A stretch of 32,614 nt of DNA, from positions 1 to 32,614 of the forward strand of contig JAOUFI010000022.1 in the NCBI GenBank assembly GCA_029858305.1. Direction: 5' to 3'. The notes below the pieces were generated by a model. The model did no database searches and was not told the DNA's origin. It saw only the letters and a list, made by a program, of their open reading frames with translations. This DNA comes from Candidatus Thorarchaeota archaeon. GTDB taxonomy: Archaea; Asgardarchaeota; Thorarchaeia; Thorarchaeales; Thorarchaeaceae. The position numbers and the translations under genes are program-made. Shown here one piece after another: positions 6,963-21,258 of the stretch (its first letter is position 1; each line of letters opens with the position of its first letter).

Positions 6963-7039
6963 ATCGGGATGATGATGAATGCAGGGATGGTGAGCGAACT
7001 CATCACCGCTATGACCCGTTAAACCGCAGTCTGACCGAT
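6963..7039 (+). ncRNA. Box C/D 2'-O-methylation guide sRNA (predicted 16S rRNA target)
   Basis: Terminal stem ATCGG(6963-67)/CCGAT(7035-39); C box ATGATGA 6969-75; D box CTGA 7031-34. D guide TTAAACCGCAG (7019-29) is complementary to the recalled archaeal 16S segment CUGCGGUUUAA. Confidence 0.8.
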
Positions 7040-7078
7040 ATTACAGTTCACGAATATAATAAGGAGTAGTAGTAATAC

Positions 7079-19688: not shown

Positions 19689-20186
19689 ATGCGAGTCTTT
19701 GCCATTTCAGGATATTCGGGAACAGGAAAAACGTCACTCGTTGAGCAGGTCATTAAAGCTCTTAGTGAAGAGGGATACACTGTAGTCACTGCAAAGACTT
19801 CAATTCATGATGTAAAAGAAGTCGAAGGGACCGATACATGGAAACATATCAAAGCGGGTGCTAAGACTGCCGCTATTCTTGGACCTCACAGTGCCGTCAT
19901 TCGACACGCAGTCGGAAAGAGTCTTCAAGATATTTTTGCTGGCATTGACGCGGACTTTCTCATTATAGAAGGCATGAAGGAGAGCAAGATTCCAAAAATC
20001 TGGTGTATCGGAAACACTGATGTAGACAAAGGAAAAATCCCAGAGTCAACTAAAGCTGTGGTTGGTTGGGTACGAAGGGAAAAAGGGGTGGAGTTAGAAG
20101 TGCCATTCTTGAAGACTGATGATATTGGGAAGATTGTTTCGATCGTGAAACAAGAGGCGATAGAACTATCCCAAGATAAAGCCTAG
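19689..20186 (+). CDS. mobB: Molybdopterin-guanine dinucleotide biosynthesis protein B
   Basis: ISGYSGTGKT P-loop, EGTDTWKH..AGA, DFLIIEGMK...PKI. Confidence 0.9.
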   Translation: MRVFAISGYSGTGKTSLVEQVIKALSEEGYTVVTAKTSIHDVKEVEGTDTWKHIKAGAKTAAILGPHSAVIRHAVGKSLQDIFAGIDADFLIIEGMKESKIPKIWCIGNTDVDKGKIPESTKAVVGWVRREKGVELEVPFLKTDDIGKIVSIVKQEAIELSQDKA

Positions 20187-20202: not shown

Positions 20203-20273
20203 GACGGCTCAGATACCCCTAAGGTCGATCATTTGTTCACAATCTCGCAAATAAGGAGCTCATCACTGCCGCC
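20203..20273 (-). ncRNA. Box C/D guide sRNA (target unresolved)
   Basis: Minus strand: GGCGGC-A-GTGATGA(20266-60)...ATGATCG (C'-like, 20232-26)-ACCTTAGGGGTAT-CTGA(20212-09)-GCCGTC; 6-bp terminal stem (one G-U pair) in K-turn geometry. Confidence 0.7.
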
Positions 20274-20409
20274 ATGATTACCAGAATTTCTACATGTATT
20301 AGTGTTGCCATTCAGCAACTACTAAACTGAGGCAATAGAGCTTTCGAATGCACATTGACACTTGGTCAAAGGGCAATACTCTTCTTACTGAGATACTGAT
20401 TGCATCTCG

Positions 20410-21258
20410 ATGAAACATATCAGCGTGGAACGATTCAGTCTTGTCGATACTATTGAATGTGGACAGACATTCACTTGGATTAGAGAGAACGAGGGGTATG
20501 TCAATACTGATTTCGGTCAGGTGATATATGTAGAGCAACGAGAAAACACACTTTTCTACGAGACATCTAGGTCAGATTCTGTTCCATTAAAAGAGATGTT
20601 CCATCTTGATGACCCACTCGATGAGATTCAGAGAGAGATCTTGCGAGATGGTGTTATGCACGAGAGCATCGCCTTTGCACCCAATCTCAGGATAATTAAT
20701 GACTCGTTCTTTCCATGCCTCATTTCGTTCATCTGCTCAACGTGCAAGAACATCCCAGCAATCCATAGGATGATGAGTAATATCAGGAGGCGATATGGTC
20801 CAGAATATACTTTCAGAGGGAAGACCTTCTATGGATTTCCTATGGCAGAACATCTGGCTGAGGCAAGTATTAAGGATCTAGAGAGGTTAGAACTCGGGTA
20901 TAGAGCCAAGTATGTAAAACAGACTGCAGATTCAATTGTTAATGGTATTGTATCTGAAAACGAGCTCAGAAAAATGACATACTCAGAAGCACATCGGACA
21001 CTCAAATCGCTGCATGGAGTGGGTGACAAGGTTGCAGACTGTGTTTGTCTTTTTTCACTAGGCTTTCTAGAGGCCTTTCCCATTGATGTTTGGATTGAGA
21101 GAGTCATCCAAGAGCACTATGGCATCTTCACTAAGACTGGCAAGGCATATGCAAGAAAATCAGCAGCGGCAAGGGAGTACTTTGGCAGATACGGAGGATA
21201 TGCGCAAGAGTATCTCTATAATTATACAAGGTCTCAAGGACGATTCCGAGAGTGTTAG
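20410..21258 (+). CDS. 8-oxoguanine DNA glycosylase/AP lyase, Ogg1 family
   Basis: TIECGQTFTW N-terminal domain, CLISFICS..KNI, LGYRAKYV, HhH GVGDKVADCVCLF (catalytic Lys), AFPIDVW (Asp), GYAQEYLY. Confidence 0.9.
   Translation: MKHISVERFSLVDTIECGQTFTWIRENEGYVNTDFGQVIYVEQRENTLFYETSRSDSVPLKEMFHLDDPLDEIQREILRDGVMHESIAFAPNLRIINDSFFPCLISFICSTCKNIPAIHRMMSNIRRRYGPEYTFRGKTFYGFPMAEHLAEASIKDLERLELGYRAKYVKQTADSIVNGIVSENELRKMTYSEAHRTLKSLHGVGDKVADCVCLFSLGFLEAFPIDVWIERVIQEHYGIFTKTGKAYARKSAAAREYFGRYGGYAQEYLYNYTRSQGRFREC

Follow-up and report, generated by a model that had tools for sequence, protein, structure and literature searches.

The archaeal dual-box C/D sRNAs, as portrayed in the passages devoted to them in Breuer et al. 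(2021, PMC7994747) and Dennis et al. (2015, PMC4644070), measure about 70 nt and carry their boxes in the order C-D'-C'-D. They have a K-turn stem, an internal K-loop and two spacers of about 12 nt, combine one conserved with one fast-evolving guide, and occur in genomes that encode L7Ae, Nop5 and fibrillarin. Guide spacers of 10-12 nt are given in the account of Breuer et al. (PMC7994747), in which Tripp (2017) is quoted for an own TATA-like promoter in about 20% of archaeal C/D genes. For Pyrobaculum, Lui et al. (2018, PMC6009581), as quoted in PMC7994747, describe orphan guides: well-formed C/D sRNAs in which a guide has no significant complementarity to rRNA or tRNA.

Here we describe a stretch on the minus strand of a Candidatus Thorarchaeota contig that is very probably a real box C/D sRNA gene, with its own putative promoter and an orphan conserved arm. 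Length, box order, predicted K-turn stem and K-loop, the presence of two spacers, the contrast between a conserved and a fast-evolving guide, and the encoded partner proteins are all shared with the archaeal dual-box sRNAs. Unlike the norm described for that group, the spacers are 13 nt long, one over the 10-12 nt reported (PMC7994747), boxes C' and D' are non-consensus yet mutually compensating (C-G for G-C), the 10-nt internal loop is conserved, and no target is found at the usual pairing standard. A TATA-like promoter of its own, which the gene appears to possess, would be a minority trait among archaeal C/D genes (PMC7994747). The RNA resembles the Pyrobaculum orphan guides (PMC6009581) in being well formed and in having a guide that lacks significant complementarity to rRNA or tRNA; unlike in those, the orphan arm is the more conserved one and is kept across 9 genera.

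Four Rfam models (SNORD18, SNORD11B, SNORD25 and snoR114) are like the locus in that box C, box D and the terminal stem align with it end to end, and unlike it in score, at 13.7-17.9 bits against gathering thresholds of 39-50 (E 0.76-8.4). These weak C/D snoRNA models were the only ones returned at relaxed thresholds. The Rfam search that the original prediction had proposed as a check gave 0 matches at gathering thresholds in the whole window, the best sub-threshold match reaching 17.9 bits against a threshold of 41. The likeness to Rfam snoRNAs is one of shared architecture, with no family membership. Among prokaryotes, the Asgard archaea are the nearest relatives of eukaryotes known so far; a full-text literature search returned no account of Thorarchaeota C/D sRNAs and no catalogue of Asgard methylation-guide RNAs.

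The window analysed is a stretch of 32,614 nucleotides (contig JAOUFI010000022.1, positions 1 to 32,614). Homologs were sought with a 91-nt BLAST query in a same-genus set of 27 genomes, 30 homologous sequences were aligned (alignment A1), and 86 genomes of the family were scanned with a covariance model (R1). Features of the locus are summarized in Table 1. The minus strand from 20273 to 20203 reads GGCGGC-A-GTGATGA-(27 nt)-ATGATCG-ACCTTAGGGGTAT-CTGA-GCCGTC, which reproduces exactly the sequence, the 6-bp stem, the K-turn spacing and the distance of 13 nt between the C'-like heptamer and box D that had been put forward for this strand. The terminal stem comprises six pairs in this genome, one of them G-U, and five pairs in most relatives. 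Its 3' strand begins immediately after CUGA, and the 3-nt bulge expected of a K-turn consists of one nucleotide plus the first two of box C; by this spacing, as read from the sequence, boxes C and D and the terminal stem are compatible with K-turn geometry, the fold itself being predicted. While both spacers are 13 nt long here, the D' spacer of relatives spans 9-13 nt and the D spacer 12-14 nt. An RUGA motif inside the loop was considered as an alternative D' box and rejected, being lost in genera g10 and g6 and having a first-position A that would not pair with C6 of box C'.

Table 1. Coordinates of the sRNA gene, its parts and its neighbours in the window
Feature	Position	Strand	Remarks
Whole box C/D sRNA (predicted), stem to stem	20203..20273	minus	71 nt; edges from R1 and BLAST
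Terminal stem, 5' strand GGCGGC	20268..20273	minus	pairs with 20203-20208
Box C, GUGAUGA	20260..20266	minus	UGAUGA invariant in 30/30 aligned sequences
D' spacer/guide, GCUCCUUAUUUGC	20247..20259	minus	13 nt; differs strongly among species
Box D', GAGA (GUGA in other genera)	20243..20246	minus	G, G and A invariant (A1 columns 28, 30, 31)
D'-C' loop, UUGUGAACAA	20233..20242	minus	10 nt; length of 10 and GAA core common to genera
Box C', AUGAUCG (AUGAACG in two genera)	20226..20232	minus	UGA and CG invariant; pairs with D'
D spacer/guide, ACCUUAGGGGUAU	20213..20225	minus	13 nt; kept family-wide
Box D, CUGA	20209..20212	minus	invariant in 30/30 sequences
Terminal stem, 3' strand GCCGUC	20203..20208	minus	pairs with 20268-20273
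Putative archaeal promoter, BRE-like GCAACA and TATA-like CUAAUAC	20296..20308	minus	ends 22 nt upstream of the stem
mobB-like ORF (name from the original prediction)	19689..20186	plus	convergent with the sRNA
Ogg-like glycosylase ORF (name from the original prediction)	20410..21258	plus	divergent from the sRNA

The box motifs by themselves are at chance level. The window contains 8 instances of the pattern TGATGA-N30-55-CTGA, with 6.87 expected (8 or more in 37 of 100 shuffles), a frequency that would fit a fortuitous co-occurrence of box-like motifs, and the folding energy of -21.9 kcal/mol carries no signal (z -0.44; 60 of 200 shuffles as stable). Boxes joined to a stem of at least 4 pairs give 31 matches in the genome against 10 in a block-shuffled genome. 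The sRNA rises above chance because of its conservation, its covariation and its promoter; family-wide conservation, sharp edges, covariation and R1 E-values down to 1e-23 refute coincidence, the probability of which we regard as negligible.

BLAST matched 25 of the 27 same-genus genomes at E 5.6e-9 or better, and most of these matches span query positions 14-81, which is the predicted sRNA; their edges coincide with the stem, and the flanks are unalignable. No sequence of A1 departs from UGAUGA, from CUGA or from the GA dinucleotides of the internal boxes; variation is high in the spacer following box C, and the spacer preceding box D is almost fixed. The internal boxes take the forms G[A/U]GA (D') and AUGA[U/A]CG (C'). 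Pairing is maintained across these sequences: the stem is closed by C-G in 27 of the 30 and by U-A in the other 3, G6 of box C pairs with C1 of box D in 30/30, and C6 of box C' pairs with G1 of box D', again in 30/30, both of these last bases being unusual and together forming a swap of the canonical G-C pair. Position 2 of D' and position 5 of C' form A-U in 25 sequences, U-A in 2 and combinations of the U-U type in 3. Paired cells amount to 89.6%, as compared with 25-50% when partners are slid, and the covariation score is 0.105 versus 0.067 in shuffles (reached by 4 of 500), figures that, the sequences of A1 being kin, are indicative only. The original prediction had named, among other things, a lack of conserved boxes or stem as evidence against an RNA gene; UGAUGA and CUGA proved invariant in 30/30 sequences, and changes in the stem compensated.

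R1 has a single match in the host genome (20202-20273, 87.9 bits, E 4.3e-21) and finds the sRNA in 45 of the 86 family genomes and 9 of the 16 genera. Occurrence by genus is uneven, with 25/27 genomes positive in the host genus and 0/17, 0/7 and 0/5 in g3, g4 and g5, respectively. Beyond the family, only 4 weak matches (25-27 bits) appeared among 117 genomes. The exact C'-guide-D pattern occurs on 26 contigs among 185,579 species genomes; 19 of these contigs are labelled Candidatus Thorarchaeota and the others are from archaeal MAGs. Second copies were found by R1 elsewhere in the genomes G093, G065, G071 and G032. Tandem arrangements were observed at L118 (G065:C16) and L121 (G093:C552), where the second copies lie 60 and about 700 nt apart, respectively.

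The sRNA and its putative promoter together fill the 223-nt gap between the two plus-strand ORFs, in agreement with the explanation offered originally for that gap. Sixteen nucleotides separate the mobB-like stop from the sRNA 3' end, and the sRNA and the Ogg-like ORF share a 136-nt intergenic region. The Ogg-like gene adjoins the sRNA in 29 of 30 related loci, four other genera included, and the mobB-like gene in 23 of 30. When upstream flanks were read by eye (n=29), a CTAWWW heptamer was seen at the same distance in 26, with an A/T-rich variant at that place in the remaining 3. The heptamer is preceded by a GACAA-like element and ends 22-23 nt before the stem, and A/T frequency peaks there at 9-10 of 10, other flank positions being unconserved. 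The position of the motif fits an archaeal BRE/TATA promoter with a start near 20273, and we infer that it functions as one.

An intergenic site and a linkage to ogg that has been kept are also what would be expected if the 70 bp were no RNA gene at all and instead a DNA element (operator, terminator or part of a promoter) serving mobB or ogg. Conservation is, however, of the RNA type, with compensatory changes in the stem and in C'/D', invariant GA and variable spacers, and the promoter-like motif is rightly spaced for transcription of the minus strand. Second copies in G093, G065, G071 and G032 further contradict a DNA element for these two genes, as does G014, a genome of the same genus (93% complete) in which the ogg locus is present without the sRNA and R1 finds none elsewhere. 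A DNA element is accordingly a very improbable explanation, and the proposal of a box C/D RNA gene on the minus strand is upheld by conservation, covariation, R1 and the promoter-like motif. Since G014 lacks it, the sRNA is dispensable or replaceable.

The host encodes the proteins with which such an RNA would be expected to act: genes for fibrillarin (PF01269, 302 bits) and Nop5 (PF01798, 222 bits) are adjacent on contig C205, and two L7Ae-family genes (PF01248, 93.8 and 78.2 bits) lie on contig C50. In the mechanism that we propose, the sRNA would be transcribed independently, its terminal stem would juxtapose boxes C and D to form a K-turn, and a K-loop would arise from the degenerate C' (AUGAUCG) and D' (GAGA). 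On this RNA, L7Ae, Nop5 and fibrillarin would then assemble into a methylation-guide particle in which the D spacer would be an orphan guide by the usual rules and the D' spacer a fast-evolving one; the best candidate for a D target would be the 5' strand of 23S helix 74, beside the peptidyl-transferase loop.

Counted from box D, positions 2-7 and 11-12 of the D spacer are near-invariant, and positions 1 and 8-10 vary. In the host genome an exact complement of this guide exists nowhere outside the gene itself; one mismatch allowed, there are 7 sites, about the chance number, and with G-U pairs allowed 144 sites, none in a recognisable stable RNA and the six best in or opposite ORFs. An apparent paralog on contig C119 was dismissed as the start of a gene. 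Searching 28 genus genomes for the exact complement of the 12-mer gave 26 matches, 23 of which are the gene itself and 3 scattered, with no recurrent site. A tRNA had been suggested as a target, and no complement of the D guide was detected among the host tRNAs (24-25 identified by ARAGORN, 30 by Rfam) or the 36 tRNA genes of G024 in their unspliced forms; 5S, SRP RNA, RNase P RNA and 400-nt pre-rRNA flanks likewise gave no match.

The best rRNA site for the D guide is LSU 2565-2577, UUACCCCAGGGGU, in helix 74 just before the peptidyl-transferase loop, which places the N+5 nucleotide at LSU C2569 (E. coli 2441). In this duplex, six Watson-Crick pairs are followed by an A-A mismatch and then by two G-U and three further Watson-Crick pairs (11/12 paired). 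Taken alone, the duplex is equalled by 192/300 and 1005/2000 shuffled guides, and by 11/60 when judged by energy. In a joint score over 15 guide variants helix 74 ranks first, with 7.0 versus 5.67 for the next site, and 7 of 200 column permutations reach that value. The duplex there also has the lowest energy in both rRNAs, at -15.7 kcal/mol with this guide and -18.4 kcal/mol with the g7 variant; the commonest genus variant, judged by energy, pairs best in a bulged duplex at SSU 268-281. The guide positions that vary (1 and 8-10) are those without Watson-Crick pairing at helix 74, and the A-A mismatch at position 8 persists in almost every variant, an oddity if the duplex were under selection. 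Covariation with 23S rRNA is uninformative for the D guide, the target site being invariant in the family (22 sequences, 2 of which have one substitution). With its interrupted pairing, marginally above chance, helix 74 (LSU C2569) may be regarded as a possible target of the D guide, one about which we are more doubtful than confident.

Both ribosomal targets suggested in the original prediction fare worse. Methylation at the junction of helices 69-71 (LSU U2051, E. coli 1923), which covers the suggested helix 69-70 target, has in its favour a duplex of 10 pairs with host 23S at LSU 2047-2059, two of them G-U, and the fact that helices 68-71 are described as methylation hot spots in other archaea (PMC7994747, PMC4644070). 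Pairing there uses, however, the part of the guide distal to box D, the invariant positions 2-3 are mismatched, the N+5 pair is G-U with just one pair separating it from the mismatches, and a frequent genus variant (A for U at position 9) introduces an internal mismatch that breaks the duplex. When 15 variants were tested jointly, the junction fell outside the top 8 sites, and we consider it a most unlikely target. The second suggestion, the CCUAAGG segment (LSU 1134-1146), shows two G-U pairs and three mismatches. The accompanying statement that the target could not be settled was accurate, no clear-cut target having been found.

Nearly even chances may be given to a different reading, in which the partner of the conserved arm is a non-ribosomal or unassembled RNA (an mRNA, another small RNA or an undetected tRNA), or in which the arm is kept structurally through weak pairing with the start of the D' spacer. 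No rRNA or tRNA match reaches the usual standard, the host genome is 89% complete with just 30 tRNA matches, and 28% of guides in Pyrobaculum are orphan according to Lui (2018), as quoted in PMC7994747. For the structural version, duplexes between D' and D spacers of 40 distinct family members have a native mean of -6.3 kcal/mol versus -4.4 with shuffled D', an intramolecular effect that is small and that base composition alone could explain. The lack of a recurrent exact complement in the 28 genus genomes, and the location of near-matches in the host in or opposite coding regions at roughly the chance number, argue against a non-ribosomal partner.

The conserved arm is quasi-palindromic, and its matches, always interrupted, fall on the 23S segment UUACCCC-A-GGGGUAA (E. 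coli 2437-2451), which forms the connection between helix 74 and the peptidyl-transferase loop. With its beginning, the D' spacer complements the other half of this segment and, weakly, the end of the D spacer; possible reasons for the complementarity of D' and D are base composition, an internal helix, or a palindromic 23S segment whose two halves are each addressed by one arm. It is conceivable, if rather unlikely, that the conserved arm is not a classical guide and that the sRNA would act as a Thorarchaeota-specific folding chaperone, clamping this segment while the large subunit is assembled, or would methylate E. coli 2441. This position is not known to be a site of 2'-O-methylation.

A separate observation concerns the 23S rRNA immediately downstream. 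Right behind the helix 74 candidate, at LSU 2578/2579 (E. coli about 2450), insertions of about 140 to about 790 nt interrupt the 23S match of at least 8 family genomes (L075-L082 plus the G085 match; G061, G062, G031, G073, G035?, G028, G033, G093, G085). These are probably rRNA introns in the peptidyl-transferase loop, and their presence does not track that of the sRNA. Insertions were also seen at the 3' end of 16S rRNA. Immediately past the decoding-site adenines, AAGUCGU and AACAAGG are separated in L035, L036, L047 and L037 (the same-genus genomes G016, G003, G001 and G013) by about 30 nt that could fold into a hairpin; the host, G006, G015 and G017 are without this insertion, which may be a mini-intron. 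Among the tRNA genes of G024 (L159-L193), ARAGORN reports introns in 19/36, several of them at non-canonical positions, and one 'stop' anticodon (tta), and the genus appears to be intron-rich in tRNAs.

In the host, the D' spacer pairs best with the 3' strand of 16S helix 44 (SSU 1442-1454), immediately ahead of the conserved AAGUCGUAACAAGG; the pairs, 12 in an unbroken run, include 2 G-U (one at N+5), and 134 of 2000 shuffles reach the score. In close relatives there is some pairing to the helix 44 site, with registers shifted; in 8 same-genus sequences the strand is conserved and the guide changes, so covariation gives no support beyond the subclade. Most of the genus carries D' spacers of the CCUCCA type, for which LSU 848-858 (E. 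coli 719-729) is the best match. There is no secure D' target, the helix 44 match being neither conserved nor statistically firm.

A second type of D guide, CGGUGAGCA, occurs in G025 at the mobB-ogg locus, in genus g6 and in the second tandem copy of G065, whose tandem copies thus carry the two different D-guide types. It pairs with the A-loop at LSU 2680-2688 (E. coli 2552-2560) through nine contiguous Watson-Crick pairs, with N+5 at E. coli 2555, and none of 60 shuffles is as good; this site lies 114 nt downstream of the helix 74 candidate, and a sister guide type aimed so near it counts in favour of that candidate. In the G025 ortholog (L028:1500-1567) the scaffold is kept and the D spacer differs at 7/13 positions, now fitting the A-loop, and the change is, by its sequence, a guide swap at a fixed locus. 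In the host itself, contig C148:62127-62198 (+) holds a different C/D RNA, in which box C is degenerate and C' (GAUGAUGA) perfect, whose D guide AACGGUGAGCAG matches the A-loop at LSU 2680-2688 and which R1 does not detect. From the distribution of A-loop guides it follows that the scaffold would serve guides for the peptidyl-transferase region, which are exchanged on it. Such exchange fits the rapid guide evolution described in PMC7994747.

Further box C/D candidates were noticed in the host. One lies within the window at 6969-7034 (+), with stem flanks at about 6963-7041, AUGAUGA, CUGA and a 5-bp stem, and is presumably the 'first' box C/D RNA of the original prediction; the 12 nt before its box D pair with 16S at SSU 915-926 through 10 Watson-Crick pairs and 1 G-U (47 of 2000 shuffles as good). 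Another, at C8:1018-1083 (-), has an 8-bp stem and a D guide that pairs with LSU 619-630 (12 pairs, 2 of them G-U; 28 of 2000 shuffles as good).

As an RNA of an ordinary kind, the sRNA alone leaves knowledge of box C/D RNAs unchanged. What it adds is one well-supported family, confined to part of the Thorarchaeota, together with a covariance model that finds its members. Orphan guides are usually explained as drifting sequence. In this family nine genera have retained a guide that lacks an obvious target, and the sRNA therefore offers a concrete case in which to study the role of conserved orphan guides.
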